A stretch of 63,153 nucleotides of DNA from an uncultured Lachnospiraceae bacterium (GTDB lineage: Bacteria; Bacillota; Clostridia; Oscillospirales; CAG-272): assembly GCA_964564225.1 (NCBI GenBank), contig CAZMAF010000001.1:78980-142132 (forward strand). The letters are read 5' to 3'. The notes under the pieces are model-generated. The model saw nothing but the letters and a program-made list of their open reading frames with translations. It made no database searches and was not told where the DNA came from. The number at the start of each line of letters is the position of its first letter. The stretch's first letter is position 1. Shown here one piece after another: positions 5,520-62,890 of the stretch. Both the position numbers and the translations under genes were made by a program.

Positions 5520-6649
5520 TTGTTCGCGCTCTTTTTCTTCGGATATATTCCGGAATTTATTCCGATTTTCCGATACTCTGTATTTGCCATGATATGACCG
5601 TAATTTATGACGGTTTGAAGGGTACGGTACTTTTTTTCAAAGCTGTCACCGTCAAGTGTCGTGATGAGAAAAAGCGCTTTTTCGGAAAGATGTGAATAGA
5701 GCGTTTTGGAATCGAAAATATCGGTAAGATAGGGTAATACTTTATCAAGATCGCCTTTGATGAAGACAAGATAGCCCTCGGTGAGAAGCGAAGCGGTACG
5801 GAAAAGATCGACGGGCTCAGAGACGTATGCCGGGTTTCGTTCTTTATCCGATGCGTCTGACAGTGCAGTAAGCGCCTCGTCGCAGGAGTTGGCATCGAAT
5901 AGCGATTTTGGTTGAAGCAGCGGTTTGAGCGCGTGAAAACGGGCGGAGAGAGAAATATGAAATTCACGGCGATAGCATTCGGATACGTTTTGGTAAAGCG
6001 TTTTGGCAAGCGCGCGGTCGCCTGACAGCATCAACGCGTAGATCTGATAGTAATGAAAGCTTTCGCAAAAGGGATCAATCGGGACAAGTCTTTGCGCTTT
6101 GCCGTGCGCTTTCTGATATTCGCCTTTGGCAATGAGCAATTCAAGTGCATCGTTGCAAAGCGCGACAAAGGCGCGGTGATAGCGCTCGGCTTCGGGCATC
6201 GTGAAGCTTTCACCTGCAAAAGACGCCAGAAATCTGCCGCGATAAAGTGCCGTTATTTCTTCAAATAATGCGAGCTTTTCCTCGTTTTCCGCGCTTTTGA
6301 AGGCAGTGAGGAGCTTTTCAAAGCGTTCGGTATCTGACGAAAAAACAAGCGTTTGGGAAAAGGCGATACAGCCGTTTTGCAGGATAATGGTTTCTTTTGT
6401 ACCGAAGACTGAGAGCATCCTGCGCAAGCGGTGCAGTGTGGTTTTGACAAGAGATTCATTTTTATATCTTGAAAAATCCTTATCGTTGTGCAGAAAACGG
6501 GAAAATTCTGCCGTTTCAATCACTCTGTTTCGGTTTTTGACAAGATAGGCGAGCGCGCGGAAAAGCCGCCCGGCACGACTTTGTTTTGCGGATAGCGTAA
6601 CATCGTTCTGCGTGAGCGAAAAATCGCCGAAAAAGGTAATATAGATCAT
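5516..6649 (-). CDS. Transcriptional regulator with winged-helix and BTAD/TPR-like (SARP-type) architecture
   Basis: The track ORF is 538 aa, but the credible start is MIYITFFGDFSL at 6647-6649, preceded by GGAGG. The helical BTAD-like region includes ...LYRGRFLA...ERYHRAFV... Confidence 0.6.
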   Translation of the reverse strand: MIYITFFGDFSLTQNDVTLSAKQSRAGRLFRALAYLVKNRNRVIETAEFSRFLHNDKDFSRYKNESLVKTTLHRLRRMLSVFGTKETIILQNGCIAFSQTLVFSSDTERFEKLLTAFKSAENEEKLALFEEITALYRGRFLASFAGESFTMPEAERYHRAFVALCNDALELLIAKGEYQKAHGKAQRLVPIDPFCESFHYYQIYALMLSGDRALAKTLYQNVSECYRREFHISLSARFHALKPLLQPKSLFDANSCDEALTALSDASDKERNPAYVSEPVDLFRTASLLTEGYLVFIKGDLDKVLPYLTDIFDSKTLYSHLSEKALFLITTLDGDSFEKKYRTLQTVINYGHIMANTEYRKIGINSGIYPKKKSANN

Positions 6650-23391: not shown

Positions 23392-24117
23392 TTATTTTCC
23401 TGTTTTCGCGCGTTCGATGCCGCGGGTAAGGTTGTGAACAAAGCGTTCCATATCGTAGCTTGCGACCATGCAGTCGGCAACGAGAGCGGGCGATTCGTCC
23501 CGGTTGCGTATGATAACGGCAACGGTGGGAATGGTATGCTCAATGCCGTCGATGCAGGTTTGTTTGCGCGTTTCGTTGAGAATGGTGGCATCTTTAAGGG
23601 TTACCATAGGAATAACCTTGGCGAAAATCTCAATTTTATCTTCGATGAGCGAGTATTTGCCCCGCCATACGCGCAGATTTACGCCTTCGATGAGTATATA
23701 GGTGACGACGTATACCGTTGAGAAAACACGTCCGTTGCGGTTTTTGCGCAAAGTGAGGCTTTCGTCCATACGGTCATAGCCTTCAAAAACGAAGAAAAGA
23801 TCGGGATTCTGTTCGGGGTGGTTAAAGAAAGCAAGCGCTTCTTCCCGGGCTTTTTTGCGAATGACGTCGATCTGTCCCTTCAAGTGCTTTTCCGAGGTGA
23901 ACATGTTGACGGCAAGGACGAGAATAATGACACCGGGAAGGGCAAAGGGAAGCGCCATAGGTACGAAGCCGTTTGTCATTATTAAAACGATAGCGGCAAT
24001 AGCAAAGAAGGGATATGAAAAATAAGATATGAACGTCCAGCGTTTTGTGCGCTTGTGATCGAAAAATAAAAGATTTTGCTTGTAATCCATAATAGCCTCG
24101 TTTCGTGATATCGTCAT
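23392..24117 (-). CDS. Hypothetical membrane protein (2 TM plus a soluble C-terminal domain)
   Basis: 241 aa. Two hydrophobic helices near the N-terminus and no recognisable catalytic motif. Confidence 0.5.
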   Translation of the reverse strand: MTISRNEAIMDYKQNLLFFDHKRTKRWTFISYFSYPFFAIAAIVLIMTNGFVPMALPFALPGVIILVLAVNMFTSEKHLKGQIDVIRKKAREEALAFFNHPEQNPDLFFVFEGYDRMDESLTLRKNRNGRVFSTVYVVTYILIEGVNLRVWRGKYSLIEDKIEIFAKVIPMVTLKDATILNETRKQTCIDGIEHTIPTVAVIIRNRDESPALVADCMVASYDMERFVHNLTRGIERAKTGK

Positions 24118-24264
24118 TTAAAACCGTTATAGTATAGCATAGAATTTGATACAGTTCAATAGATTTCTGTGGCTTTTTTGTGTTCTTTTTGTAAAATATC
24201 TTGCAAAAGAAATGAAGTGGTGTTATAATAATTACGATTATAGAAGTCATGGAGGTATCGGGCG

Positions 24265-25347
24265 ATGCAGCTTCATAAAATCGTAATTACAGGCGGTCCT
24301 TGCGGCGGTAAAAGTACCGCGAAGGGTTACGTGAAAGACTATTTTGAGGCGAGAGGGTATACCGTTCTGTTTGTTCCCGAAACGGCGACTGAACTGATTA
24401 CGGGGGGCGTTGCTCCTTGGACTTGCGGAAAGAACGTTGATCATCAGAAATGTCAGATGCGTCTTCAGCTTTGTAAGGAGGAGGTGTTTGAATATGCCGC
24501 CTCGACGATGAAAGCAGACAAGATGCTGATTGTCTGTGACCGCGGCGTGATTGATAATTGCGCGTATATGAATGAGGCGGAATTTAAAGAAACGCTTGCC
24601 TATGTCGGTAAGACTGCCGTAGAGCTGCGTGACGGTTATGATGCGGTATTTCACCTCGTAACTGCTGCCGACGGCGCGGAACGTTTTTATACGACCGAGA
24701 ACAATGCCGCGCGCACCGAAACCATTGCGGAGGCGATCGCGCTTGACCGCCGTCTGATTGCCGCTTGGACAGGGCATCCTCATCTTCGCATTATTGATAA
24801 CAGCAGTGATTTTAAGGGCAAAATGTTGCGCCTTCTGGAAGAAATTTCAAGCTTTCTCGGTGAGGGTGAGCATTACGAGATTGAACGTAAGTTTCTGATC
24901 GAGCGCCCCGATCTTGCTTTTCTTGAAAAGGAGCCTTGCTGTCGCCGTGTTGATATCGTGCAGACATACCTGAAGGGCGAGGAGGGCGAGGAGGTACGTG
25001 TCCGTCAGCGCGGTGAGTATGGAAGCTATACCTATTTTAAGACGGTCAAACGCGGTGTCGGTGTCAAACGCACCGAGGATGAAGAACGTATCTGTGAGGA
25101 AATGTATTTTGCACTTTTGAAAAATGCTGATCCCGATTATCGCCCGATCCGTAAAACGCGCTATCTGTACGTTTATGACGGACAGTATTTTGAGATCGAT
25201 GTTTATCCCTTTATGACCGACCGTGCGATCGTCGAGATTGAGCTTTGCCGTGAGGATATGGCGGTAAGGCTTCCCGATGCCTTTCATCTCATCCGCGAGG
25301 TGACCGATGATCCCTTCTATAAAAATCGCGCGCTTGCCAGACGGTGA
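24265..25347 (+). CDS. P-loop NTPase (AAA_28/NadR-like) fused to a CYTH (triphosphate tunnel) domain
   Basis: Walker A is ITGGPCGGKST. The C-terminal half starts with the CYTH ExExK signature (YEIERKFLI). Confidence 0.75.
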   Translation: MQLHKIVITGGPCGGKSTAKGYVKDYFEARGYTVLFVPETATELITGGVAPWTCGKNVDHQKCQMRLQLCKEEVFEYAASTMKADKMLIVCDRGVIDNCAYMNEAEFKETLAYVGKTAVELRDGYDAVFHLVTAADGAERFYTTENNAARTETIAEAIALDRRLIAAWTGHPHLRIIDNSSDFKGKMLRLLEEISSFLGEGEHYEIERKFLIERPDLAFLEKEPCCRRVDIVQTYLKGEEGEEVRVRQRGEYGSYTYFKTVKRGVGVKRTEDEERICEEMYFALLKNADPDYRPIRKTRYLYVYDGQYFEIDVYPFMTDRAIVEIELCREDMAVRLPDAFHLIREVTDDPFYKNRALARR

Positions 25348-25448
25348 GCGGTTGAAAACCGCGGGCTTGTTCATAAAAAGTTTATAATTTACCCCCTTGC
25401 AATATAGCGAAAGATGTGCTATAATGCCCTATGCGACTGAATGAATAC

Positions 25449-25540
25449 GGAGATGTACTCAAGAGGCCGAAGAGGCGCCCCTGCTAAGGGTGTAGGTCGG
25501 TAATACCGGCGCGAGAGTTCAAATCTCTCCATCTCCGCCA
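25449..25540 (+). tRNA. tRNA-Ser (anticodon GCU)
   Basis: 92 nt. Acceptor GGAGATG/CATCTCC, anticodon loop CT-GCT-AA, long variable arm, T-arm GAGAG-TTCAAAT-CTCTC and an encoded CCA. Confidence 0.9.
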
Positions 25541-25543
25541 AAA

Positions 25544-25577
25544 ATCGACAAGTTTCGACAGAAGCTTGTCGATTTTT
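25544..25577 (+). terminator. Terminator after tRNA-Ser
   Basis: ATCGACAAG...CTTGTCGAT stem followed by a T run. Confidence 0.6.
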
Positions 25578-25949
25578 ACTTTTTCACTATTACCTCTTCA
25601 CTTTTCACTCTTAACTTACGAAACTTGTCGATAGATAACAGGTAAAAGTGAATAGTGAAAAGGGGCAGATGTAGCTTTTCTCCCGATGGTCAAAAAGCAT
25701 TTATTTTATACACGAGTTCAAATCCATACCCAAAAACGTAAAATATCTTTTTTCTCCGCCCTTCACATCAAAGGGCGACAAAAAAGATATAGCCCCGAAA
25801 TCCCTTGAGAAATCAAGGGATTTTCGCTTTTTAAGGGCGAAATTATTATGTTTGATTTCGTAGATAAAAAATGAATATTTTCCGATACTGAATAGATTTG
25901 AACTCCCACGCATCTAACAATCTTTTCGTAAAATCCTGCATATAAAATC

Positions 25950-25977
25950 AAAATCCTCGGATTACTCCGAGGATTTT
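25950..25977 (-). terminator. Terminator of the aldose epimerase gene
   Basis: AAAATCCTCGG-ATTACT-CCGAGGATTTT. Confidence 0.7.
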
Positions 25978-25980
25978 ATA

Positions 25981-26856
25981 TTATTCAATCGTAACCGAAT
26001 ACTGATACGAAGCTGATTCCCCAACCTCAAGAGCATTCGTCCAAGGCTTTTCAGGGAGTTCGCCCTCAAAACCTACGCCGTCACATCTGCCATACCATGG
26101 CTCAATGCAAACAAAAGGACAATCCTCCTTATAAGGCGACCAAATACCCACGACAGGAGCATCAAACGCAACCTCAACAAAGGGCTCATAGGTATCGTCA
26201 CAAAGCGCAATCGCATGTACCTGCGAATTTTCAAACACTAACGCATCATTCTTGAAAAGATCCTTTTCAAGACGAATCATACGATTCGGCATAATATGCA
26301 CCGCATCCTTCGCATTTACTTCGACGTCGGCATAACGGTCGGTAATCGTCGTAATCGTCTGCGGCATTTTATCAAACATAATGTAACAGTCCTCACGCTT
26401 AACGTCTTCGGGAAGATTAAACGCGGGATGCGCGCCGATTGCATAATACATCGTACCTTCACTCTTATTTTCAACCGTCCACTTGACAAGCAGCGTGTTA
26501 TTTTGAAGGCTGTATTCAACCGCCAGAACGAAATCAAACGGAAAATTCTCGCGGGTAGCTTCATTTGATTCCAAAGCAAAGGTAATCCGCGTACTCTCTT
26601 TTTCTACAAATGTAAACTCACAGTCACGCGCAAAACCGTGCTGCGGCATATGATAGGACTTGCCTTCAAAACGATAGGTGTCCCCGATTTCCGCCCCTAC
26701 GAAAGGAAACAGAATAGGCGAACGACGTCCCCAGAACGCCGCATCTCCCTGCCACAAATATTCTCTACCGTCAGAACTTTTCACGCTCTGCAATTCTGCA
26801 CCAAGGTCAGAAACCGTAACGACAAGACAATTATTCGATATGGTGTGTAATGCCAT
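25981..26856 (-). CDS. Aldose 1-epimerase-family protein
   Basis: 291 aa. Blocks GAELQSV...REYLWQGD...WGRRSPILFPFVG and HPAFN are characteristic. Confidence 0.8.
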   Translation of the reverse strand: MALHTISNNCLVVTVSDLGAELQSVKSSDGREYLWQGDAAFWGRRSPILFPFVGAEIGDTYRFEGKSYHMPQHGFARDCEFTFVEKESTRITFALESNEATRENFPFDFVLAVEYSLQNNTLLVKWTVENKSEGTMYYAIGAHPAFNLPEDVKREDCYIMFDKMPQTITTITDRYADVEVNAKDAVHIMPNRMIRLEKDLFKNDALVFENSQVHAIALCDDTYEPFVEVAFDAPVVGIWSPYKEDCPFVCIEPWYGRCDGVGFEGELPEKPWTNALEVGESASYQYSVTIE

Positions 26857-27038
26857 AATAGACTCCGTTTATTAAAATGATAGACACCCAAAACGTATTG
26901 ATATCAACAACACGCTCTATTGTATGTATTAGTATAGCACAAATTGAAAAAAATAACAAGACCTTTTGCGAATTTTATCGAAAAAAAGCATTTTTGTCAT
27001 TTTCGAACCATAAGCAAAACATCGACCGCTACCTTATG

Positions 27039-28935: not shown

Positions 28936-30273
28936 TTATTTTCCGTCTTTTCCGTAAAATTCTTCATAAATCGCACGAATCACGACAGTCATATCCTTCT
29001 CTGCGACACTGAGAATGATACTGAACTCACTCGAGCCTTGGTCGATGGTGCGAATATTCACACCGCTCTTTGCAACAGCAGTAAAAACGCGAGCAGCAGT
29101 TCCTACGCGGTTCACCATACCTCGTCCCACGACAGCGATAAGCGCAAGTCCCTCTTCAAGCTGAATGCTGTCAGGCTCTACCACGCGGCAGATCTGATTG
29201 ATTACCTGATCGCGCTTAGGCAAAAGCGCCTCGGTTGCCGCAATAACACCCACCGAGTCGATACCCGATGGCAAATGCTCAAATGAAATACCGTTATTTT
29301 CAAAAACGTGAAGCACGCGGCGGCCAAAGCCCACCTGCGCATTCATCATATCCTTTTCAATCGTAAGCACCGAAAATCCACATTTACCCGCAATACCGGT
29401 GATCTCACCGCATTCCGTTCCCTTTTCAGCGTGCGCCAGAATCATCGTGCCGGGATCTTCGGGACGGTTGGTATTACGGATATTGATCGGAATACCCGCC
29501 ATACGTACAGGGAAAATTGCATCCTCATGCAAAACGTTCGCACCGCGGTAGGAAAGCTCGCGAAGCTCGTGATACGTAATCACTCCGATCGTCTTAGGAT
29601 TTTTTACAATGCGAGGATCGGCAACAAGAAAGCCGGATACGTCTGTCCAGTTTTCGTAAAGATCAGCATCACACGCGCGCGCAACCACCGAACCGCTGAT
29701 GTCACTGCCGCCACGCGAGAAAGTCTGTACTGTCCCATCCTGACGCGCACCGTAAAAACCGGGAATAACTGCGTGCGTGTGCAGTTTCAATACAGTAGAC
29801 ATCACCTTCTGTGTCTTATAAACATCAAGAAATCCATCCTCATCAAAGAAAAGAACGTCCTTGGCATCAATAAAATCGTAGCCAAGCGCCTTTGCCAGAA
29901 CGATACCGTTCAGATACTCGCCGCGGCTCGCCACGTAATCACTATCACACCCCGATGCAATCGTTTCCTCAATCACACGAAATTCATCCGACAAATCAAG
30001 AGAAAGCGAAAGTCCGTCAATAATGTCCTGATAGCGCTTTTGAATAACGGTAAGAACTGTGCGGAAATCACCCTTCACCTTCGCTACATTATAACATTCG
30101 TACAGCTTATCGGTTATCTTAAAATCACCGTCAAAACGCTTGCCCGGTGCCGAAGGGACGACGTAACGGCGCGTTTCGTCCGCACGGATAATATCAATTA
30201 CTTTTTGGAACTGTGCAGCATCCGCAAGAGAACTGCCACCAAATTTCACTACCTTTACGTATTCGGTCTTCAC
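28936..30273 (-). CDS. lysC: Aspartate kinase
   Basis: 445 aa with a GTG start. VVKFGGSSLADA kinase motif and C-terminal ACT repeats. Confidence 0.85.
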   Translation of the reverse strand: MKTEYVKVVKFGGSSLADAAQFQKVIDIIRADETRRYVVPSAPGKRFDGDFKITDKLYECYNVAKVKGDFRTVLTVIQKRYQDIIDGLSLSLDLSDEFRVIEETIASGCDSDYVASRGEYLNGIVLAKALGYDFIDAKDVLFFDEDGFLDVYKTQKVMSTVLKLHTHAVIPGFYGARQDGTVQTFSRGGSDISGSVVARACDADLYENWTDVSGFLVADPRIVKNPKTIGVITYHELRELSYRGANVLHEDAIFPVRMAGIPINIRNTNRPEDPGTMILAHAEKGTECGEITGIAGKCGFSVLTIEKDMMNAQVGFGRRVLHVFENNGISFEHLPSGIDSVGVIAATEALLPKRDQVINQICRVVEPDSIQLEEGLALIAVVGRGMVNRVGTAARVFTAVAKSGVNIRTIDQGSSEFSIILSVAEKDMTVVIRAIYEEFYGKDGK

Positions 30274-30332: not shown

Positions 30333-30361
30333 ATTATATGAAATATTTTTCCATTTGTCAA
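30333..30361 (-). promoter_or_regulatory. Sigma-A promoter of lysC (TTGACA-17-TATAAT)
   Basis: On the minus strand, TTGACA lies at 30356-30361 and TATAAT at 30333-30338 with a 17-nt spacer. Confidence 0.6.
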
Positions 30362-30451: not shown

Positions 30452-30480
30452 TTGACAACGTATCTTAAATTTGCTATAAT
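30452..30480 (+). promoter_or_regulatory. Consensus sigma-A promoter of the tracrRNA
   Basis: TTGACA at 30452-30457, a 17-nt spacer, then TGcTATAAT with TATAAT at 30475-30480. Both hexamers are perfect and the TG extension is present. Confidence 0.8.
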
Positions 30481-30486
30481 AATCAC

Positions 30487-30576
30487 AGTCTTAAATCATA
30501 CCAAAGACTAATAGGTTGCTATGATAAGGTAGTAAACCGAAAAAGCTCTGACGACCCTCGCGGTCGTTATCTTTTT
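30487..30576 (+). ncRNA. tracrRNA: tracrRNA of the type II-C system
   Basis: The anti-repeat at 30490-30525 pairs with the 36-nt repeat through 30 Watson-Crick pairs, 3 G-U pairs and one 2x2 internal loop. It is followed by AAGG, the hairpin ACGACC-CTCGC-GGTCGT and TTTTT. GTTGCTATGATAAGG resembles the N. meningitidis tracrRNA GUUGCUACAAUAAGG as I recall it. The 5' end is predicted from the promoter. Confidence 0.8.
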
Positions 30577-30582
30577 ATACCA

Positions 30583-32191
30583 CTATTAGTTTTTGGTATG
30601 ATTTAACCGCTTGCCCCTTAATGAGGTGCGTGCAAACGTCGTAGCTCCCTATTAGTTTTTGGTATGATTTAACTTTTCGGCGCGTATCGTGCTCTCTTTG
30701 CATGTCGTAGCTCCCTATTAGTTTTTGGTATGATTTAACGGTGTTTTTTACGAGCATTTGCCGAAACCAGTCGTAGCTCCCTATTAGTTTTTGGTATGAT
30801 TTAACCATATTTTTTCGTAGATGTCGAATTCCCAAGTCGTAGCTCCCTATTAGTTTTTGGTATGATTTAACCGTCGTCGTTCCCGCAAACGCGTTTATGA
30901 TGTCGTAGCTCCCTATTAGTTTTTGGTATGATTTAACAAGCACGCTTGAACCGAAACGTATCACGATGTCGTAGCTCCCTATTAGTTTTTGGTATGATTT
31001 AACAAGCACGCTTGAACCGAAACGTATCACGATGTCGTAGCTCCCTATTAGTTTTTGGTATGATTTAACTAACTTCGGGATATTATGTTGTCACTCTATG
31101 TCGTAGCTCCCTATTAGTTTTTGGTATGATTTAACAGCTTTCTCACCGTCCCGTCATCCATGCGGGTCGTAGCTCCCTATTAGTTTTTGGTATGATTTAA
31201 CCAGGCGAAAAGGCGGTATTGATAAATGGATAGTCGTAGCTCCCTATTAGTTTTTGGTATGATTTAACGCATCAATCTGCTTTATGGCTCTGTTCGTAGT
31301 CGTAGCTCCCTATTAGTTTTTGGTATGATTTAACAGATAGCCCGAACGGTATGCACGCGATTCTGTCGTAGCTCCCTATTAGTTTTTGGTATGATTTAAC
31401 AGTACAAGCAGACAATGCAAGCGCGGCACAGTCGTAGCTCCCTATTAGTTTTTGGTATGATTTAACAAGAAAAGTTTAATGGACATATCATGAAAGGTCG
31501 TAGCTCCCTATTAGTTTTTGGTATGATTTAACACAACTACGAAAGAAACGACTAATAACAAAGTCGTAGCTCCCTATTAGTTTTTGGTATGATTTAACAT
31601 CCCGTTCTTTTTGTTGTCGGGTGTCCGAGTCGTAGCTCCCTATTAGTTTTTGGTATGATTTAACATCTGACTTGCCTATAAATTTCTTCGCGTGGTCGTA
31701 GCTCCCTATTAGTTTTTGGTATGATTTAACATAAAGGTGATAAACCCCTGTGGAGGTGGCGTCGTAGCTCCCTATTAGTTTTTGGTATGATTTAACAAAC
31801 GGCTCGCATTCAAGAGAAACAATCTTGTCGTAGCTCCCTATTAGTTTTTGGTATGATTTAACATGATGGTATGTCAACCGCCTTAAAGCGTAGTCGTAGC
31901 TCCCTATTAGTTTTTGGTATGATTTAACGCCACAGCCTCTGCATTGGTCTTTGTTGCCGTCGTAGCTCCCTATTAGTTTTTGGTATGATTTAACTTTTCA
32001 GCGACTTCCTTTTCCACGCCTAAAGTCGTAGCTCCCTATTAGTTTTTGGTATGATTTAACCTCCGCACACTCTGATAGCGAATACGTCTCGTCGTAGCTC
32101 CCTATTAGTTTTTGGTATGATTTAACACAGTAGCAGAGCTGTATGAGCGCCTGCGGTCGTAGCTCCCTATTAGTTTTTGGTATGATTTAAC
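30583..32191 (+). CRISPR. CRISPR array: 24 full 36-nt repeats plus one 5'-truncated repeat, and 24 spacers of 29-31 nt (23 unique)
   Basis: The repeat GTCGTAGCTCCCTATTAGTTTTTGGTATGATTTAAC starts at 30638, 30704, ... 32156, and all copies look identical by eye. A truncated copy (CTATTAGTTTTTGGTATGATTTAAC) lies at 30583-30607. The plus-strand orientation follows from similarity to the Neisseria type II-C repeat GTTGTAGCTCCC... and from tracrRNA pairing. Confidence 0.97.
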
Positions 32192-32200
32192 TGACAGGGC

Positions 32201-32237
32201 AAAAATCCCCGAAATCCATGTGATTTCGGGGATTTTT
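32201..32237. terminator. Bidirectional terminator between cas2 and the array
   Basis: AAAAATCCCCGAAATC-CATGT-GATTTCGGGGATTTTT. Confidence 0.8.
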
Positions 32238-32289: not shown

Positions 32290-32619
32290 TCAAAAAAGCG
32301 TAAGCTGAAGATCCTGCGGCTTTATCAATTCATCTTTTTGATACTGCCCGACCAATAAGCGAATCGCATCATATTGCTTTTCCGTAATCACCAAAAGACG
32401 CACCGATCCGTTTGGCGGCAAATTTCCTTTCAAACGAGCCTCATGCTTAGCAACGGCATCCATACCGTTACACAAACGCGCGTAAACGGAAAACTGCACC
32501 ATATAATATCCGTCTTTCAGCAAAAAATTACGGAATTTCGTAGCAGCGTGCCGCTCCGCTTTAGTTTTAACGGGAAGATCAAAAAACACCAACACTCTCA
32601 TAAACTTACTCGTATTCAT
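32290..32619 (-). CDS. cas2: CRISPR-associated endoribonuclease Cas2
   Basis: 109 aa. MRVLVFFDLPVKTKAERHAATKFRNFLLKDGYYMVQFSVYARLC is a typical Cas2 N-terminus. It overlaps the cas1 stop. Confidence 0.9.
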   Translation of the reverse strand: MNTSKFMRVLVFFDLPVKTKAERHAATKFRNFLLKDGYYMVQFSVYARLCNGMDAVAKHEARLKGNLPPNGSVRLLVITEKQYDAIRLLVGQYQKDELIKPQDLQLTLF

Positions 32620-33505
32620 GTCGTTTTAATTCAGCAAAAGTAGGTAACAAAAGCTTCTTTTCAGGATCATCATAAGCCGAAAGCAAACTATTTACAAGCC
32701 GTTCTGCCGCATAGGCCATCGTATGATGCTCCCCGCCCGACAGCATCTCATAATTCAAAATATTTTGCAATTCCCTCTTGGTCGAAATATCAAATTCATC
32801 AAAATTACAATTTTGAAAAACAAAAGCATCCACCAACGAACGAAACGGCTCAATCAGATCATCGGCAAGATTAAAAGGATTTAACTCACTACGGTGATGA
32901 ATGCCCAAACACGGCTCAAAGCCCCGCGAAGCGATCAACCGAGCCAAATAACCGCGCACGATCGCATAACCGTAATTCAACGCCGCGTTAATGGCAGACT
33001 CATCAGATCGCGTGAAATCCGCGCCAAACAAAAGCCGGAAATAAAGCGCCGCCGCTTTGGCTTCCACGTTTGTCTTATCTCCAGACTGTACCGATGAAAC
33101 AAGCCCCGAAAGCCTTTGTATAAACGATTCATCTACACCGCACACCGAAAGACACGCCGCCTGATTTTGAATTTTAGCAACAACAATACTCTTCCACATC
33201 TGTTTGAGCTGTGGCTGAGACGGCGATAACTGCAACAGTAACTGCTTTCTCTGTCGGGAATGTTGTCCAATCGGTTGAAGCAAAGCACAAGGCAAATGCT
33301 TATCGTCACAAATATACACACAAATACCGTGTATCGCAAACGCTGATAGCGCATAGGTGGAAATCTGCGACGAACGGCTTTCGAGAATCACCGTGCGAAT
33401 ATCCTCAAGCGGTACTCGTCCCTCGGCAGCGCCGGAAATAACCAACTGCTCATTTTTTACCGTGATCGAAACCGAAGACGAAATCACAATGTTGCGATAT
33501 CCCAT
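32606..33505 (-). CDS. cas1: CRISPR-associated endonuclease Cas1 (type II)
   Basis: 299 aa. Blocks ALNYGYAIVRG...GFEPCLGIHHRSELNPFNLADDLIEPFR carry the Cas1 metal-binding residues. Confidence 0.9.
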   Translation of the reverse strand: MGYRNIVISSSVSITVKNEQLVISGAAEGRVPLEDIRTVILESRSSQISTYALSAFAIHGICVYICDDKHLPCALLQPIGQHSRQRKQLLLQLSPSQPQLKQMWKSIVVAKIQNQAACLSVCGVDESFIQRLSGLVSSVQSGDKTNVEAKAAALYFRLLFGADFTRSDESAINAALNYGYAIVRGYLARLIASRGFEPCLGIHHRSELNPFNLADDLIEPFRSLVDAFVFQNCNFDEFDISTKRELQNILNYEMLSGGEHHTMAYAAERLVNSLLSAYDDPEKKLLLPTFAELKRHEYE

Positions 33506-33506
33506 T

Positions 33507-36500
33507 TTACGACCTCTTCTGCGTAAAAGGCTGTCTACGCTCTTTTCCTACCAATCGCACGTTACCAAGCACATCGACCTCGTATTTTTCAATTCTCAAT
33601 GTCGTTTTACCGATAGTGCGATGTGTATACGTTCCGTCGTGCGTTATTCCTCTGAGAACGGCAACCGAAATATCCAGTCCCTTATTATAGAGGAACACAC
33701 CGTCGCCCCCACTTAATGTCTTCGTCTTAGGCAGCGTACTGCCTGCTTTTTCTAGCTTTCCATCAAGTGAAAGTGAAAAATCTTTTTTAAAATACACCTT
33801 TATAAGATCATTGGGATATAATGAAAATTGAAAATCAGAATCTCTCATTTGTTTCCAGATTTTCTTATCATTCTTGTCTTTAGCCGCTGTCGGCGCCATA
33901 CTCGGCAATTCCGCCTTAACCGTATCATGAACGTAGATCGGCACAAAATAATAACCATCATCCTCAACGTAAAATACGTCAATACGGATCATATCGCCAT
34001 TCGCGGCAATACCCGTACCCCCATGCACGTCAACGAACGAAGAAATACGCTCTCGAATCTTGACCGAGGTCACAAGCGTACCCTCGCCGCCTTTCTTAGA
34101 GGGCTTATACACAGGCTTTGCAAAAGCCTGTGACGCATCCCCGTTATGCTCAATCAAGCGGTCTGCAAGAATAGCATACAATACGGGATCGGAATCGTTA
34201 TAATATCCCTCGATCTGTCCGCTTTTCCACTTCAATTTCGTCAAAGGAACCTTGGAAACAAGATATCCGTCATCCTTGAGCTTTCCACTGTAAACCGTTG
34301 CCTTATTAGCAGCTCCCTTGATCTTATGACGGCACATACGCGATACAAAAGGCGCCGTCACACTTTCTAAATCGACCTCTGCATAATTCGGAAAATTCTT
34401 ATCATTCAACTGCTTACGTACTGCCGCATCATCCTGACACAGACGAATCGTCAATTCATCAAGAAACCACGGCCACGGTCTTGGAAATTTAACAATAACG
34501 TCATTCGACTTCTCAATAACCTCACCCGTAATCGCATCCACAAGATACTCCTCCGCATATTGCGTTTCTTCATACCGAGCATGACGATTGATCTCGTTAA
34601 TCATACCTTGTGAAATACAACCAATAACAGTTGCATCAAGCGCATGATGCAAATCGCCGTCAGCACGCACCTTACGAACACCCCATCTTGCACGTACAAC
34701 CGCAGTAATCATACCGTTCACGGCATATACGTGACGCTTTTTACCGCTGCTGAACGGAGAAAATGCAAGATAGTCGTTAATATATCCATACAAAAACCGT
34801 GAAAGATACTGTGTATCTTGTAAATTACGCGCTTTCCATTCCGACTCATTCGAAATCTTTTCCTTCAAAAGCAAAGCTTTTTTATTTGCTTTTAACCGAC
34901 TTGTTTTAACCCAGACTATGAAATCATCACGCTTTTGACCGGTCAGATATTGAAGCGGTAAACGGTTTGACTTATTACGATTTTCCGCCGTTCTGACCAA
35001 AACCTTATTCACCATTCTATCGTCAAAACATTGGCTATACGGAACGATATGATCAACTTCAACCAATCGGTGATCCATAAGCTCCTCAAAGGATATATTT
35101 GTCAAAGAATACGCGCAAACCTTACCCTGTTCATTCCAAAGCTTATACTTAACAAGATCAAATCCGGTGGGCTGTTTTACACCAAGCCCACGAAGTTCAT
35201 CCATCATCCGCTCATTTTGTGCCGCATTTTCCTTCTGCAATTTTTCAATCTTATTGCGTTCCTCAAAGGTCTTGGAAAGCTCCCTTGCAAGCTCGATATT
35301 CAGATATACAGGACTTTCCTCACCCATAAAACGAATAATCGCATTCAAGACTTTGATCGTCTGCGACACCGCACGCTTAACAACAGGGTTCGTAATCGCT
35401 GTACTCGTAGCATCAAGCCCGGGAAGGTATTTAAACTTTTCCGTGTTTTCCGCCTTAAAAGCATACCCTGCCGCCTCGCAAGCCTTATCATAAGTAAGTC
35501 CTTTTTCAAGATGAGGAATAATTTTCCGAAGCGCCTTCAAGGATAAATGTCCGTTTTTCGCCTTATTATCGAGAGTCAGCACACGATCGATAATTTCCTG
35601 CGAAAAATCCGCTTTAAGAAGCTGCTTGGTAATTTCTTCATCCGAATAATTCTTCGAAAACACCATACCGATCACGTCAAGTTGCTCGTGAGAAACGAAT
35701 ACAAATAGATCATCCCCAAGCGCAGCCTTCACTTTGTGATAAAATTCAAGATCGTTAAGCTTTGACTTGTCCTCTGCCTTTTTAACGTCCTCACCCTTCA
35801 CATACGTAATACCTCTAAAAAGCGCATCGTCGCTCAACTGCAAAAGCTTTCTGATTTGTAAATAACTCAACGTTTTCTTTTTATGACATTCATCAACGAT
35901 CAAACGGCGCTCTTCATCCGCCAATGAACGCACGTCCCCGTTTTCGATAATACGAATATGATTAACATGCTGCCACAAATTGAAAATCTGAAATGAATAC
36001 GTCGCCTTCGCCGCGCGAGGCTCGTCCTTTTCAAAGGTACAATTCCCGCGCATTCTGTCTACCTGATTGCCAGCGTACGGACCGCAAGCGGGTCCGTCTG
36101 CAAACGAACGCTGTCTTAATAAAATCTCACAGTATAACGCCTCGTTTTCTTCAGTAGCAAACAAATGTCCGTATTCCCGCTGCTTACCGAAAATCAAATG
36201 CACCTCATCTTCAATCGAAGCACGGTCGACCGTACAGTCAAACTGCCCCGCCCGATTTCGCCTCTGCTCCAAATGATAAAACATCTCGCCAACCGTGCGA
36301 TAACCTTTTTTGGCACAAAGCTCACGGTTTTTGGCAACCGCGCTCAACATTTGCGAGCCTTCAGTATCTTTTTTATCCTCTGCCTTACGATTGGATTTAA
36401 AACCTCTTCTTTGCGCTAAATGAATCAATACACGCGCAAATTCTTCATCTGTCAGACGCTCATCAAGCGCCTTCACACGAAGCCCGTACACGTCGGAAAG

Positions 36501-36791
36501 TTCCTTTCCGTCATATAAAGTATCAAGCGCATCTTGAGTTAAAAGCCCGGAAGAACAAATCAAATTACGAATACGCTCTTTTCTGTGTCTTCTGCGGCGA
36601 ACCGTTCTTCTGGCACAACGGAAAACTCTGCGCTCTTCTGCAAGTGGATCTCCCGTTTTCGGCAACTCTGCCTTTTCAAAAATACGGGAACCAAGCTTGA
36701 TAATACGACAAGGATTATCATTTCCGTCAAGCTCCAATACCGAATATCCAACCGATGCAATTCCAACGTCCAGACCGATAGCATATTTCAT
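33507..36791 (-). CDS. cas9: Cas9 endonuclease, compact type II-C-size ortholog (1094 aa)
   Basis: RuvC-I KYAIGLDVGIASVGYSVL (D8). Arg-rich bridge helix RRVFRCARRTVRRRRHRKERIRNL. RuvC-II NIELARE. HNH VEVDHIVPYSQCFDDRMVNKVLVRTAENRNKSNRLP. RuvC-III DLHHALDATVIG. No csn2 or cas4 is present in the locus. Confidence 0.95.
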   Translation of the reverse strand: MKYAIGLDVGIASVGYSVLELDGNDNPCRIIKLGSRIFEKAELPKTGDPLAEERRVFRCARRTVRRRRHRKERIRNLICSSGLLTQDALDTLYDGKELSDVYGLRVKALDERLTDEEFARVLIHLAQRRGFKSNRKAEDKKDTEGSQMLSAVAKNRELCAKKGYRTVGEMFYHLEQRRNRAGQFDCTVDRASIEDEVHLIFGKQREYGHLFATEENEALYCEILLRQRSFADGPACGPYAGNQVDRMRGNCTFEKDEPRAAKATYSFQIFNLWQHVNHIRIIENGDVRSLADEERRLIVDECHKKKTLSYLQIRKLLQLSDDALFRGITYVKGEDVKKAEDKSKLNDLEFYHKVKAALGDDLFVFVSHEQLDVIGMVFSKNYSDEEITKQLLKADFSQEIIDRVLTLDNKAKNGHLSLKALRKIIPHLEKGLTYDKACEAAGYAFKAENTEKFKYLPGLDATSTAITNPVVKRAVSQTIKVLNAIIRFMGEESPVYLNIELARELSKTFEERNKIEKLQKENAAQNERMMDELRGLGVKQPTGFDLVKYKLWNEQGKVCAYSLTNISFEELMDHRLVEVDHIVPYSQCFDDRMVNKVLVRTAENRNKSNRLPLQYLTGQKRDDFIVWVKTSRLKANKKALLLKEKISNESEWKARNLQDTQYLSRFLYGYINDYLAFSPFSSGKKRHVYAVNGMITAVVRARWGVRKVRADGDLHHALDATVIGCISQGMINEINRHARYEETQYAEEYLVDAITGEVIEKSNDVIVKFPRPWPWFLDELTIRLCQDDAAVRKQLNDKNFPNYAEVDLESVTAPFVSRMCRHKIKGAANKATVYSGKLKDDGYLVSKVPLTKLKWKSGQIEGYYNDSDPVLYAILADRLIEHNGDASQAFAKPVYKPSKKGGEGTLVTSVKIRERISSFVDVHGGTGIAANGDMIRIDVFYVEDDGYYFVPIYVHDTVKAELPSMAPTAAKDKNDKKIWKQMRDSDFQFSLYPNDLIKVYFKKDFSLSLDGKLEKAGSTLPKTKTLSGGDGVFLYNKGLDISVAVLRGITHDGTYTHRTIGKTTLRIEKYEVDVLGNVRLVGKERRQPFTQKRS

Positions 36792-54856: not shown

Positions 54857-55036
54857 ATGCAGAATCTTCTTAAAGGAATTTCTTTGATACTGTTTGGTAT
54901 CGCCATAATTCTTGTTGCATTGGTTAACGAAACTGCACATTACTTTTCTGTTGATTTAACCGTTGTAATAACTCTCATTGGAATAATAGTGTCTGCTGTC
55001 GGGTTGACATTCACATTTAGTTCTAAGAGCAAATAA
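54857..55036 (+). CDS. 59-aa two-TM hydrophobic peptide (type I toxin- or holin-like), antisense to the intron
   Basis: MQNLLKGISLILFGIAIILVALVNETAHYFSVDLTVVITLIGIIVSAVGLTFTFSSKSK. GAGG RBS 7 nt upstream, its own promoter and its own terminator. Confidence 0.55.
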   Translation: MQNLLKGISLILFGIAIILVALVNETAHYFSVDLTVVITLIGIIVSAVGLTFTFSSKSK

Positions 55037-55045
55037 TATTCACAC

Positions 55046-55079
55046 AATACTTCTCTCATCAAGGGAAGTATTTCTTTTT
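55046..55079 (+). terminator. Terminator of the mini-gene
   Basis: AATACTTC-(11 nt)-GAAGTATT followed by TCTTTTT. Confidence 0.6.
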
Positions 55080-55227
55080 AGGCAACTTTTTCCTCCAGCT
55101 TTTCCCCCGGTCCACACCGTGCGTGCGACTTTCACCGCACACGGCGTTCCATCGTTTCACTTAATATCACTTTAACATCACAATTTTACAATTATTTCAG
55201 CCTTCATTCGCCTTGGAATACGCTTCC

Positions 55228-57195
55228 TTAGCGGAGCGCAGGTAATCCCGCGAGTTCCCTTAGCTGATTAAGCTTATTAAGTTGCTTGTCATTCAACTTG
55301 AGTAAACCCAAATAGAAATCAATTGTGCTTTTCTTTGTAGAGTGTAGCAGTCGATGCACATCTTCCAGTATAAGCACAAGATTGTTATAACCATCTTTGC
55401 CACCCATTGCTCTTGGAGTTTTGTGATGACAATGTATTTCCTCTTGACATAAAAAGTCTTTGCCAGTGATGGCACATCTACCTCTTTGTGCCGCAAAGAG
55501 AGAAACACGGTTATCGTTATACTCAATTGAACGGTCACTTACTGGGTATTTGTATAGCTCACCCAGTAACCAAGCGTTCCGAAACATTAGGTTGTCGTGT
55601 TTCCATTTTCGTCCTTCAGGCGTGTATAGATTAACAGCTTTCTTCTTACCTACGGTTGTTCTGTGACTTACATATGCTATCGGTAGAATGTAATGTCCTT
55701 GACATTCCATTATCCGTCTGCATTTTCCGTAATTTTTGTAATCTCCTTGTCTTGGGGTTAAGGAGCATTTCTTCAGAGGTTTAAGCCGATTATACAATGC
55801 CTTGTAAATCGAGTTATGGATTTCTTGACAATCCGTTGTAATATCCGTTGCCATTCGGAAATAGTTATGTATTCCTCTAACCTCGGAGTTATACAACTGA
55901 ATGTTTCTCACGGCTTGTTTTGAGTCACCGCTTCGTTGAATGACTTTGATTTGCTTTTTTAATGCAACTTTAGTGCGCTCAATTGCTTTAGGGCACATAT
56001 GGGACACAATGACATCTTTTTTGCCTTTTCTTTTTGTTCTAATTTCAATTCCCAAGAATTCTCCAGATTTTTTCCGAAGATTTACAATCCGAGTCTTTTC
56101 CATTGAAACATCAAGGTCAAGGCGCTTTTTGAGCCATTCCGCGACTCCATATAGTGTTTTCTCTGCTTCACCCTTTGTAGCACACATTATTCGCACATCG
56201 TCTGCATATCGGATGATGTGCATTTCTTTTAGATTGGTTTTTCGCATTTCCCGAAAAGAGCTTCCTTTGCTGAAAGTTCCATTCGGTGCTACTCCGCCTT
56301 TCCATTTGTACGCAAGTGGATTTTCTCCCCATTGACTTTCCATATGCCAATCCAATTCATTGAGAACGATATTGGCAAGTAACGGTGAGATAATACCGCC
56401 TTGCGGTGTGCCTTTTGTTGGTGTCAAGATAGTACCATCGGGCATTTCGATTTTTGCCTTTAGTATCTTCTTAATTATGCAGATAAGTTGCTTATCCCTA
56501 ATTCCCATCGCCCAAATTTGTCTAATCAGTTTGGTGTGATTGACATTGTCGAAGAATCCTTTTATATCCACTTCAATCATATAATACAGATTCGACCGAT
56601 TGATGTATCGGTAAACCTCATTTATTGCATTTTCCGCAGACCGTAAAGGACGGAATCCAAAACTCCCATCGAAAAACTTTGCTTCACAAATAGGTTCGAG
56701 TATTTGTAGAATACATTGTTGTATCAATCTATCCCATATACACGGAATACCTAAAGGTCGTGTTCTACCGTTGGGTTTTGGTATATCCTTTCTCCGAACA
56801 TTTCTCGGTTGATAGTTACTTAGGATATTTCGCACTCGTTTGCATACTACTTCTGGTTCGAGTTTTTCGATATGTTTAATGTTCAGTCCATCCGTACCAG
56901 GCGTTTTACTTCCCGAATTGCGTTTTATGGAACGGTATGCCATCAAGATATTTGCGTTCGAAGTGATATACTTCATTAGCGTATCAAAGATAACTCCGTT
57001 TTTACTGTCACTATACAGTTTATCTAACAACTCTTGCTGGTCGTAGTATTCAGCATATCGAAGTTTGTTTATTTTCTTCTGCTTAATCTTTTTGGCTATC
57101 TGTACTTCTACAGGTTGCCTTGCTGAAATTTGTTCATCCACTGGTTCATCACCCCCACTGTATGAGGTACCTCTTTTGGGCTTACTCACATCCAA
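55228..57195 (-). CDS. Group II intron reverse transcriptase / maturase / HNH endonuclease
   Basis: 655 aa. RT blocks TPGTDG, RPLGIP, GTPQGGIISPLLANI and IRYADDVRIM. The C-terminal HNH region is CAITGK...HCHHKTPRAMGGKDGYNNLVLILEDVHRLLH. The track start is TTG, so the exact start is uncertain. Confidence 0.9.
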   Translation of the reverse strand: MDVSKPKRGTSYSGGDEPVDEQISARQPVEVQIAKKIKQKKINKLRYAEYYDQQELLDKLYSDSKNGVIFDTLMKYITSNANILMAYRSIKRNSGSKTPGTDGLNIKHIEKLEPEVVCKRVRNILSNYQPRNVRRKDIPKPNGRTRPLGIPCIWDRLIQQCILQILEPICEAKFFDGSFGFRPLRSAENAINEVYRYINRSNLYYMIEVDIKGFFDNVNHTKLIRQIWAMGIRDKQLICIIKKILKAKIEMPDGTILTPTKGTPQGGIISPLLANIVLNELDWHMESQWGENPLAYKWKGGVAPNGTFSKGSSFREMRKTNLKEMHIIRYADDVRIMCATKGEAEKTLYGVAEWLKKRLDLDVSMEKTRIVNLRKKSGEFLGIEIRTKRKGKKDVIVSHMCPKAIERTKVALKKQIKVIQRSGDSKQAVRNIQLYNSEVRGIHNYFRMATDITTDCQEIHNSIYKALYNRLKPLKKCSLTPRQGDYKNYGKCRRIMECQGHYILPIAYVSHRTTVGKKKAVNLYTPEGRKWKHDNLMFRNAWLLGELYKYPVSDRSIEYNDNRVSLFAAQRGRCAITGKDFLCQEEIHCHHKTPRAMGGKDGYNNLVLILEDVHRLLHSTKKSTIDFYLGLLKLNDKQLNKLNQLRELAGLPALR

Positions 57196-57920
57196 TGCTA
57201 AGTGATGTTTAGTGTATATTAGTGTAACGACTTGTGGCCATTCCTCCTACTTCCATTACAGAAGTTATCATTGGTTCGACCACTACTTTTCAGCATTAGT
57301 TCGATAACTTATTATTCTTCGTTTACCTATTCTCGTTTCCGAGAACCTAATACCTTTCCTCGTTCCCTTAATTTTATCTGTACATTTTCTCTTTTAGGTT
57401 TCTGCTATAGGCCTGTCGGATTCATATGCGCCTGCCGCATATAAGGTATTTCATAGACGCAGATTTTTACTTTACCTCACCGACGTCCCTCTATGGGGAA
57501 ACTCCGTGTTTCCACGTATCGCCAGTTTAGACCCGTACTTTCGCAGATTCGTCAGTACATTCCGTACATTCTAACCGTGAGAGATTTATAGACCCCCGAC
57601 ATATCATTTCCCTTGTCTTATACTTTAGATGTTTGGAACGGGCGGGCTCTGGCCACTTTTGTACCAATTCTTACTAATCTATTTCTTTGATTTAGGTACT
57701 CTTTCTGCCGACTTTACCGAGCTTCTGACTATTTAACTTTCGTTATATATAGCCAGTCGGAGTCTTAGGGATAGTCCTTCAAGAGGGTTGCCCAATCCTT
57801 TCGGGATTGGCTCTATCATTTGACTATTCGAATTAAGAGTTCTCCTTAAATAAGCTTGTAGTATATAACTACTTCGACTTCTTTAAGTGCCTTAGCTTTT
57901 CACTAAGGAACGAGTCGCAC

Positions 57921-61280: not shown

Positions 61281-61403
61281 ACAAAACAAAAGCACCCACG
61301 TCATCCGCGGGTGCTTTCTCATCTCCACGGAATTGGCACCTTACGTTTGCAGGTTGCCGTGACTTCATCGGGCTGTGTCCCTCCGCCACTCTTGATAAGA
61401 GCT
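61281..61403 (-). promoter_or_regulatory. SAM-I (S-box) riboswitch with terminator, in the metK leader
   Basis: The minus strand reads CTCTTATCAAGAGTGGCGGAGGGACACAGCCCGATGAAGTCACGGCAACC...GGTGCCAATTCCGTGGAGATGAGA, followed by AAAGCACCC-GCGGATGAC-GTGGGTGCTTTTGTTTT. Confidence 0.9.
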
Positions 61404-62714: not shown

Positions 62715-62890
62715 AAATCCCCACTACCGTGGGGAAACACTTTTGCCATAAAAGCAAATCTTTTCTCATCCGGACTTTACCGTCGGTACAGGATTTTCAC
62801 CTATTCAGCATTGCCCAAAGCAACACTCACGGACTTGGCGTATACGCCTTACCGTCGGTGTGGAATTTCACCAACCCCCAAAGATCTTTC
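62715..62890 (-). promoter_or_regulatory. FMN riboswitch (RFN element) with terminator
   Basis: The minus strand reads GGGGTTGGTGAAATTCCACACCGACGGT...AGTCCGTGA...GGTGAAAATCCTGTACCGACGGTAAAGTCCGGATGAGAAAAG, followed by the hairpin CCCCACGGTAGTGGGG and a T run. Confidence 0.85.

Follow-up and report, generated by a model that had tools for sequence, protein, structure and literature searches.

Type II-C CRISPR arrays have a standard layout in which each repeat carries a promoter and the last repeat is where new spacers are added (Feussner et al. 2025, PMC12080349). In Neisseria meningitidis the 5′ ends of the CRISPR RNAs (crRNAs) are generated by initiation at promoters within the repeats, and RNase III is dispensable (PMC5965381). 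Differential RNA sequencing of Campylobacter jejuni revealed one primary start per spacer, with a −10 box, GGTAAAAT, ending the upstream repeat; transcripts start at spacer position 5, and RNase III and the trans-activating crRNA (tracrRNA) direct a cut within the repeat (Dugar et al. 2013, PMC3656092). For Clostridium cellulolyticum H10, the last nine nucleotides (nt) of the repeat resemble an extended −10, a crRNA was detected for every spacer, and the array is antisense to cas (Fedorova et al. 2020, PMC7038990). RNA sequencing set the array polarity opposite to cas in all three species (PMC3656092 and PMC7038990 for the latter two). In Campylobacter a terminator 5′ of the extra repeat insulates the array; the first 15 nt of the extra repeat are the preferred site of mutation, and terminators may be present 5′ of the array (Feussner et al. 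2025, PMC12080349). The subject of this study is the CRISPR array at positions 30583–32191 of a 63,153-nt stretch of DNA (the window). The locus is a compact type II-C CRISPR-Cas9 system of an uncultured Clostridia (Oscillospiraceae-like) bacterium, and each of its repeats contains a motif, TGGTATGAT, that resembles an extended −10. An earlier note on this DNA had proposed that every repeat acts as a promoter for the spacer that follows it. We examined the array, its flanking sequences, and the repeats of related loci, and we consider it somewhat probable that transcription initiates at this motif in each repeat, a corrected form of the earlier model in which the motif is not the counterpart of the Neisseria and Campylobacter box.

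The −10-like motif and the orientation of the array

The array was delimited by sequence and with a repeat finder. In crRNA sense (plus strand) it consists of a 5′-truncated first repeat, 24 full repeats of 36 nt that are all identical, GTCGTAGCTCCCTATTAGTTTTTGGTATGATTTAAC, and 24 spacers of 29–31 nt; the full repeats run from 30638, where the first one starts, to the last one at 32156–32191. The truncated repeat, CTATTAGTTTTTGGTATGATTTAAC (30583–30607), is the oldest or extra repeat; it has lost the first 11 nt and keeps nt 12–36. Motif TGGTATGAT occupies nt 23–31 of the repeat. Its first copy is at 30594–30602 on the plus strand, and further copies follow every 65–67 nt to 32178–32186, for a total of 25 copies in 25 repeats. 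Beyond the array it occurs once on the minus strand in the tracrRNA anti-repeat and once elsewhere in the window; by chance, 0.4 copies would be expected in the window as a whole. The motif matches TGnTATAAT at eight of nine positions, with TG, T−12, A−11, and T−7 all retained. It is preceded by a T-run and followed by five repeat nt (TTAAC), after which the spacer begins. The earlier note had placed such a motif 5 nt from the end of every repeat, had pointed out that the truncated repeat keeps just the 25 nt that bear it, and had stated that all 24 spacers have the motif on their 5′ side and a full repeat on their 3′ side; the coordinates and counts are correct on each of these points.

The probability that a random 36-mer contains an equally good, suitably placed extended −10 was estimated as 0.003–0.006; since the motif is inherited within a repeat family and is not an independent draw, comparison with related repeats is the better test. 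A −35 element for the internal repeats was considered and rejected: the best match found by inspection was 1–2 of 6, and the first repeat alone scored in the scan. In that repeat a partial −35, TTTATA, at 17-nt spacing is lent by the T-tail of the tracrRNA terminator. An extended −10 with hexamer TATGGT is of the galP1 type, which is described as needing no specific −35 contacts; TATGAT, the hexamer within TGGTATGAT, is one step nearer to consensus.

Sequence evidence of three independent kinds indicates that the crRNA sense of the array is the plus strand, antisense to the cas operon, in agreement with the earlier note. Because a tracrRNA gene with its promoter and terminator is on the plus strand, its partner crRNA must read GTCGTAGC... 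on that strand. Homologous repeats in more than 70 related loci are all oriented opposite to cas9. The third kind of evidence is the presence of flanks that resemble a protospacer adjacent motif (PAM) on the 3′ side of three viral protospacers. These protospacers were identified with 8 spacers from the cas-proximal end of the array in an exact search of IMG/VR viral contigs. Two spacers matched, spacer 24 at 29/29 positions and spacer 21 at 30/30, and no match was obtained in that exact search for spacers 23, 22, 19, 18, and 17. The third protospacer, which matches spacer 20 at 24/30 positions, was detected by a mismatch search of the fetched contigs. The 3′ flanks of the protospacers for spacers 24, 21, and 20 (contigs L119–L124) are TAATCCAA, ATAGCCAA, and TAAACAAG; they fit N4C(C/A)A and suggest a PAM of that form at the usual type II-C position. 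The three 5′ flanks have nothing comparable in common; an A precedes each protospacer. A BLAST search of the array against GenBank phages gave a best E value of 0.5, and no self-targeting spacer was found within the window at 5 or fewer mismatches.

Two other features of the spacers were observed. Spacers 6 and 7 (30938–30967 and 31004–31033) are identical, one 66-bp repeat-spacer unit having been duplicated in the array. The first nt is A in 13 of the 24 spacers, including all of spacers 12–20 (31335, 31401 ... 31863), with p ~0.01 before correction for multiple tests. This bias could reflect a purine preference in start-site selection, an acquisition bias, or chance. We dropped it as a mark of start-site selection, because it is statistically marginal and is not present in 551 spacers of relatives, of which a fraction of 0.27 begin with A.

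The terminal box and the tracrRNA gene in related loci

Cas9 relatives collected from GTDB genomes and other assemblies yielded 50 unique 36-nt repeats. These have a common backbone, GTTGTAGTTCCC...TTGGTATGGTATAAT, and 35 of the 50 end with TATAAT, nearly always as TTGGTATGGTATAAT. The conserved extended −10 of the relatives is the terminal 9-mer, TGGTATAAT. Within this TGnTATAAT, G29 is invariant and each of T28, A32, A34, and A35 occurs in 96% or more of the repeats; nt 30, the "n" of the consensus, is the one that varies, among G, A, T, and C. Such a pattern of conservation is the signature that would be expected from selection on an extended −10 at the 3′ end of the repeat. TGGTATGAT overlaps the position of this terminal box and lies 5 nt upstream of it. 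At the same nt 23–31, most relatives carry TGGTATGGT, a TATGGT hexamer with an upstream TG and hence of the galP1 type, and a few (L040, L052, and L097) combine TGGTATGAT with an unbroken terminal box in the form TGGTATGATATAAT. By this comparison, the repeats of the family hold two overlapping candidate extended −10s 5 nt apart, and the window has kept the upstream one only. A −10 box within the last 9 nt of the repeat, from which transcripts would start 5–7 nt into the spacer, was not found in the window.

The exact window repeat had no match in the representative GTDB genomes, and a search of GTDB with a degenerate repeat pattern returned the sister group described below alone, with TATGAAATAAC/T. 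In JGI metagenomes the degenerate pattern found one array, canonical but for a single variant repeat, which was uninformative. Contigs with the same Cas9 or an 82%-identical Cas9 were broken inside the last repeat or had just 2 spacers, and no series of strains displaying the polarity of spacer turnover was found. The locus with the 82%-identical Cas9, L016, has two full repeats, one of which (5807–5842, minus strand reading) has a T22→C change, TTTCTGGTATGAT, that falls just beyond the TG and the hexamer. The truncated repeats of L016 and the window are 100% identical over 25 nt.

The oldest repeats of 46 arrays were compared by region. They contained 283 mismatches in nt 1–22 and 21 in nt 23–36, an asymmetry that is inflated by the criterion used to recognize decayed repeats (11 of 14 matches at the 3′ end). 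The 25 nt shared with L016 and the intact 3′ parts of the oldest repeats fit a promoter needed for spacer 1, and they also fit a requirement for tracrRNA pairing and RNase III cutting upstream of spacer 1. The pattern of decay agrees with that described by Feussner et al. (2025, PMC12080349).

The tracrRNA gene of the window lies at about 30487–30575 on the plus strand and comprises an anti-repeat, then a nexus-like hairpin, and last a terminator. Pairing of the anti-repeat extends over repeat nt 2–35 except for a 2-nt internal mismatch, and the folding energy of the RNA is −25.3 kcal/mol (z, −3.1). The tracrRNA is ~98% identical between the window and L016, and the intergenic DNA between the divergent promoters upstream of it is ~45% identical. 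A search of Rfam returned no tracrRNA or CRISPR family, only weak matches driven by the terminator. The tracrRNA promoter (30452–30480, plus strand) consists of TTGACA, a 17-nt spacer, and TGcTATAAT, matching the consensus at 12/12 positions with the TG in addition. The terminator (30549–30575, plus strand) ends 7 nt 5′ of the truncated repeat; by analogy with the concept of Feussner et al. (2025, PMC12080349), it would also shield the array from upstream transcription.

The antisense copy of TGGTATGAT in the anti-repeat (30495–30503, minus strand) faces the tracrRNA promoter and is predicted to initiate at ~30488, the same place as the start of the tracrRNA (~30487). If the motif in the repeats is active, this copy should be active also, competing with the tracrRNA promoter and reading toward an aspartate kinase gene. 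In most members of the family (L056, L077, L086, L095, L076, and others; position 30489 in the window), the anti-repeat has a mismatching C opposite repeat nt 36. The antisense strand of the tracrRNA gene consequently reads TATAAG, a terminal −10 broken at T−7, and the remainder of the anti-repeat is complementary. The C may have been selected because it prevents antisense initiation within the tracrRNA gene, or it may reflect a constraint on the tracrRNA start.

The location of the tracrRNA gene differs between the window and most of its relatives. In canonical relatives (L036–L105), the anti-repeat is 4.6–4.8 kb from the end of the array, on the cas9 strand and just 5′ of cas9. In the window, L016, and a sister group with Cas9 identity to the window of 55–57%, the tracrRNA gene is on the crRNA strand, 112–175 nt 5′ of the first full repeat. 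The loci with the tracrRNA gene at the head of the array (L022–L031, L079, L106–L117, the window, and L016) formed one clade in a neighbor-joining tree of Cas9. In this clade the terminal −10 has decayed to AATAAC or TTTAAC; the repeats of the sister group have TGGTATGAAATAAC in at least eight species and ...AATAAT in two. As far as the sequences indicate, tracrRNA relocation and decay of the terminal −10 are a correlated change within one clade.

Transcription of the array

The model that we favor, with modest confidence, is initiation from TGGTATGAT in each repeat. The sequence shows the anatomy of the locus, the crRNA strand, the motif in all repeats, and the loss of the terminal box; promoter activity, the start site, and the use of RNase III are what we infer. 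In this model TGGTATGAT (nt 23–31) would act as a weak-to-moderate σA/σ70 promoter that does not depend on a −35. RNA polymerase would start about 7 nt past the hexamer, at spacer nt 2 (range, nt 1–3); with the Campylobacter spacing instead, +1 would be the last nt of the repeat or the first nt of the spacer. Initiation at all of the repeats would produce nested primary transcripts, each ending at the terminator at 32201–32237, and the transcript from the last repeat would consist of the terminator hairpin only, with no handle. The first repeat, with its partial −35, TTTATA, is possibly the strongest promoter. The tracrRNA (30487–30575) would pair with almost all of each downstream repeat, and cleavage of the duplex by RNase III would set the 3′ end of the crRNA. 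The 5′ end would be set by initiation, and nearly the entire 29–30-nt spacer would be retained. The features associated with suppression of an extra crRNA, an upstream terminator and an extra repeat damaged at its 5′ end, are both present, as expected of arrays that rely on internal promoters. The system looks active, given the intact catalytic residues of Cas9, a conserved tracrRNA, and perfect viral matches for the newest spacers.

Several observations weigh against this model. The window repeat aligns base for base with those of the family, and in its terminal 9-mer, TGATTTAAC, A−11 has been changed to T and T−7 to C; it is the sole repeat of the 50 without A at nt 32. A−11 and T−7 are the most important bases in σ70-type promoters. 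Because both are lost, the window counterpart of the Neisseria and Campylobacter promoter is predicted to be dead. The internal repeats match a −35 element at 1–2 of 6 positions. Repeat nt 23–29 are also constrained by pairing with the tracrRNA, with compensatory changes across the family, so the fact that most of the motif is conserved does not point specifically to its use as a promoter; among its nine positions, T31 alone would be informative about promoter selection, and it has been kept in the window and lost in the sister clade. The sister form, TGGTATGAAATAAC, has no T−7 in either register, and the arrays that contain it still have up to 24 repeats. In the same clade the array is now headed by a strong tracrRNA promoter, with only the tracrRNA terminator between them. 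Because the sister arrays combine such a promoter with the lack of a good −10, internal promoters may be dispensable in this clade.

The array could instead be transcribed mainly from its head as a long pre-crRNA, by partial read-through of the tracrRNA terminator, from the first repeat, or both; tracrRNA and RNase III cleavage with 5′ trimming would then produce the crRNAs, and the internal copies of TGGTATGAT would be relics kept by tracrRNA pairing. We take this to be a serious alternative, though a doubtful one as the main source of the crRNAs, and it is compatible with per-spacer initiation, since the two are not exclusive. The tracrRNA gene is 7 nt 5′ of the array on the same strand and has a promoter with a 12/12 match plus TG, but its terminator seems competent, with an 8-bp stem and then UCUUUUUA. 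Placement of the tracrRNA gene at the array head is confined to the clade with the decayed terminal −10; in canonical relatives the gene is 5′ of cas9. Within the clade, the sister species have long arrays with no consensus −10 in either register, and the substitutions affect nt 31, 32, and 36, which were critical to the old promoter; relaxed selection on it would be expected to have this effect. The window lineage, however, has kept T−7 (T31), and its upstream register is still a good extended −10. The anti-repeat pairs with nt 12–35 of the truncated repeat, so RNase III could free crRNA 1, and the best −35 (TTTATA) belongs to this first repeat; nevertheless, first repeats with the same decayed 5′ part and intact 3′ part are found in canonical relatives that have no upstream tracrRNA gene. 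Moreover, RNA polymerase probably binds a motif so near to consensus regardless of any need for it. A further account, which we offer tentatively and think rather unlikely, is that the clade is in transition in the way it makes crRNAs. Once the tracrRNA gene had moved to the array head, a single strong promoter could supply both the tracrRNA and, through partial read-through of its terminator, the pre-crRNA, and the ancestral per-repeat promoter would since have decayed; it would have been lost in both registers in the sister species, and its upstream twin would have been left in the window, giving primary guides of the full 29–30 nt.

It is also conceivable, and in our judgment quite improbable, that the motif has no role in transcription. 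The 3′ end of the repeat would then be kept for integration by Cas1-Cas2 and for the RNA duplex, the −10 match would be a leftover, and the array would be poorly expressed or silent. Repeat ends are the sites attacked by the integrase, the duplex with the tracrRNA covers all of the 3′ part of the repeat, with covariation across the family, and the terminal T→C change has recurred in several lineages (L010, L037, L076, and the window clade), all of which would accord with such a view. It is difficult to reconcile, however, with newest spacers that match extant viral contigs perfectly, with intact catalytic residues in Cas9, and with a conserved tracrRNA gene that has a perfect promoter, because an active system needs crRNA. 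In addition, the 25 nt of the truncated first repeat are conserved, although this repeat serves neither for integration nor as a handle for Cas9. Initiation at each repeat remains the model that we prefer.

The surrounding locus and comparison with known systems

A search with NCBIfam models identified cas9 (33507–36791, minus strand; 1094 amino acids; TIGR01865, 750 bits), cas1 of the NMENI/type II class (32606–33505, minus strand; 299 amino acids; TIGR03639, 277 bits), and cas2 (32290–32619, minus strand; 109 amino acids; TIGR01573, 84 bits), and it found neither csn2 nor cas4 at the locus. In an alignment of Cas9 proteins, the catalytic residues D8, D580/H581, and N604 are in invariant columns. 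Inspection of the sequence 5′ of cas9 revealed a promoter-like TTGATT-17-TGtTAAAAT; the gene 5′ of cas9 is divergent, and the promoter region lies between the two. The array is directly beyond cas2, and cas9-cas1-cas2 and the array converge on a bidirectional intrinsic terminator in the gap between cas2 and the array (32201–32237, both strands). Its hairpin is perfect, with folding energies of −24.9 kcal/mol on the plus strand and −23.5 on the minus strand (z, −5.4 and −5.0), and flanking A- and T-runs give a U-run at either side. It is 9 nt from the last repeat, at the side where type II-C arrays acquire spacers; the earlier note was right that this repeat (32156–32191) runs into it. The terminator is predicted to close the transcripts of both the cas operon and the array, and it is kept in L016 and L022. 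A terminator scan detected no plus-strand terminator within the array.

Upstream of the array, two σ70-type promoters that each match the consensus at 12/12 positions are back to back: one at 30333–30361 on the minus strand serves the aspartate kinase gene (28936–30273, minus strand), and one at 30452–30480 on the plus strand serves the tracrRNA. L016 has the same synteny. Farther away, at ~24000–27000 of the window, the GC skew changes from positive to negative and the gene orientation from plus to minus; this region looks like a replication-terminus region or the boundary of convergent operons. Rfam matches at the gathering level, all on the minus strand, were a group II intron at 54998–57844 (D1–D4 and the catalytic domain), a SAM-I riboswitch at 61316–61401, and an FMN riboswitch at 62754–62889, which are consistent with a Firmicute genome.

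Promoters embedded in repeats are already published type II-C biology, and in kind the finding is a rediscovery. What is new is comparative and a modest twist, a 5-nt shift of the putative promoter register that appears to be coupled with tracrRNA relocation. If the box is active, the array would be a Firmicute addition to the small set of arrays in which guides are made by initiation and not by processing, and it would indicate that a promoter can slide within the repeat, lengthening the primary guide from ~24 to ~29–30 nt. This would be of practical relevance for expression of the window Cas9 with its native array, and it bears on how RNA polymerase, the tracrRNA duplex, and the integrase together shape the repeat. 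That relocation and −10 decay are linked is a cheap, testable hypothesis on how the transcription architecture of type II-C systems evolves.

The earlier note had drawn a parallel to N. meningitidis and C. jejuni, which is apt in that these are type II-C systems with documented extended −10s in their repeats; it fails in that the motif TGGTATGAT is not the counterpart of their terminal 9-mer, which in the window reads TGATTTAAC. The Neisseria box is reportedly the last 9 nt of the repeat, TGCTACAAT, and transcription is said to start several nt into the spacer and leave a guide of ~24 nt. Like the window, N. meningitidis has cas9, cas1, and cas2 only, 36-nt repeats that begin GTYGTAGCTCCC, an array opposite to cas, an extended −10 in the 3′ part of the repeat, and a tracrRNA that pairs with almost the entire repeat. 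The window differs from it in the broken terminal 9-mer, the intact box 5 nt upstream, the predicted starts at spacer nt 1–3, and the tracrRNA gene at the array head. The window shares with C. jejuni a −10-like box in the 3′ part of the repeat and a terminator 5′ of the extra repeat; the Campylobacter box, however, ends the repeat, whereas that of the window, a predicted promoter, is 5 nt farther upstream. Like the window, C. cellulolyticum and ~70 Oscillospiraceae and Clostridia loci represent type II-C in Firmicutes, and their arrays are antisense to cas. The relatives surveyed have kept the terminal TGGTATAAT, and their tracrRNA genes are mostly 5′ of cas9, whereas the window has TGATTTAAC and a tracrRNA gene beside the array.

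An architectural analogy can also be drawn with the P1 and P2 promoters of the Escherichia coli gal operon, which are offset by 5 bp. The repeats of the family, TGGTATGGTATAAT (in some, TGGTATGATATAAT), likewise contain two overlapping TGn-hexamers offset by 5 nt, and the upstream TATGGT is the galP1 hexamer. The likeness is one of arrangement and not of homology; CRP and GalR switch the gal promoters, and the analogy does not extend to a regulator in the window. Finally, the window resembles the arrays described by Feussner et al. (2025, PMC12080349) in having an oldest repeat damaged at its 5′ end and a Rho-independent terminator directly 5′ of the array. It differs from them in that this terminator is the tracrRNA's own and in that the extra repeat lacks its first 11 nt and is not merely mutated.

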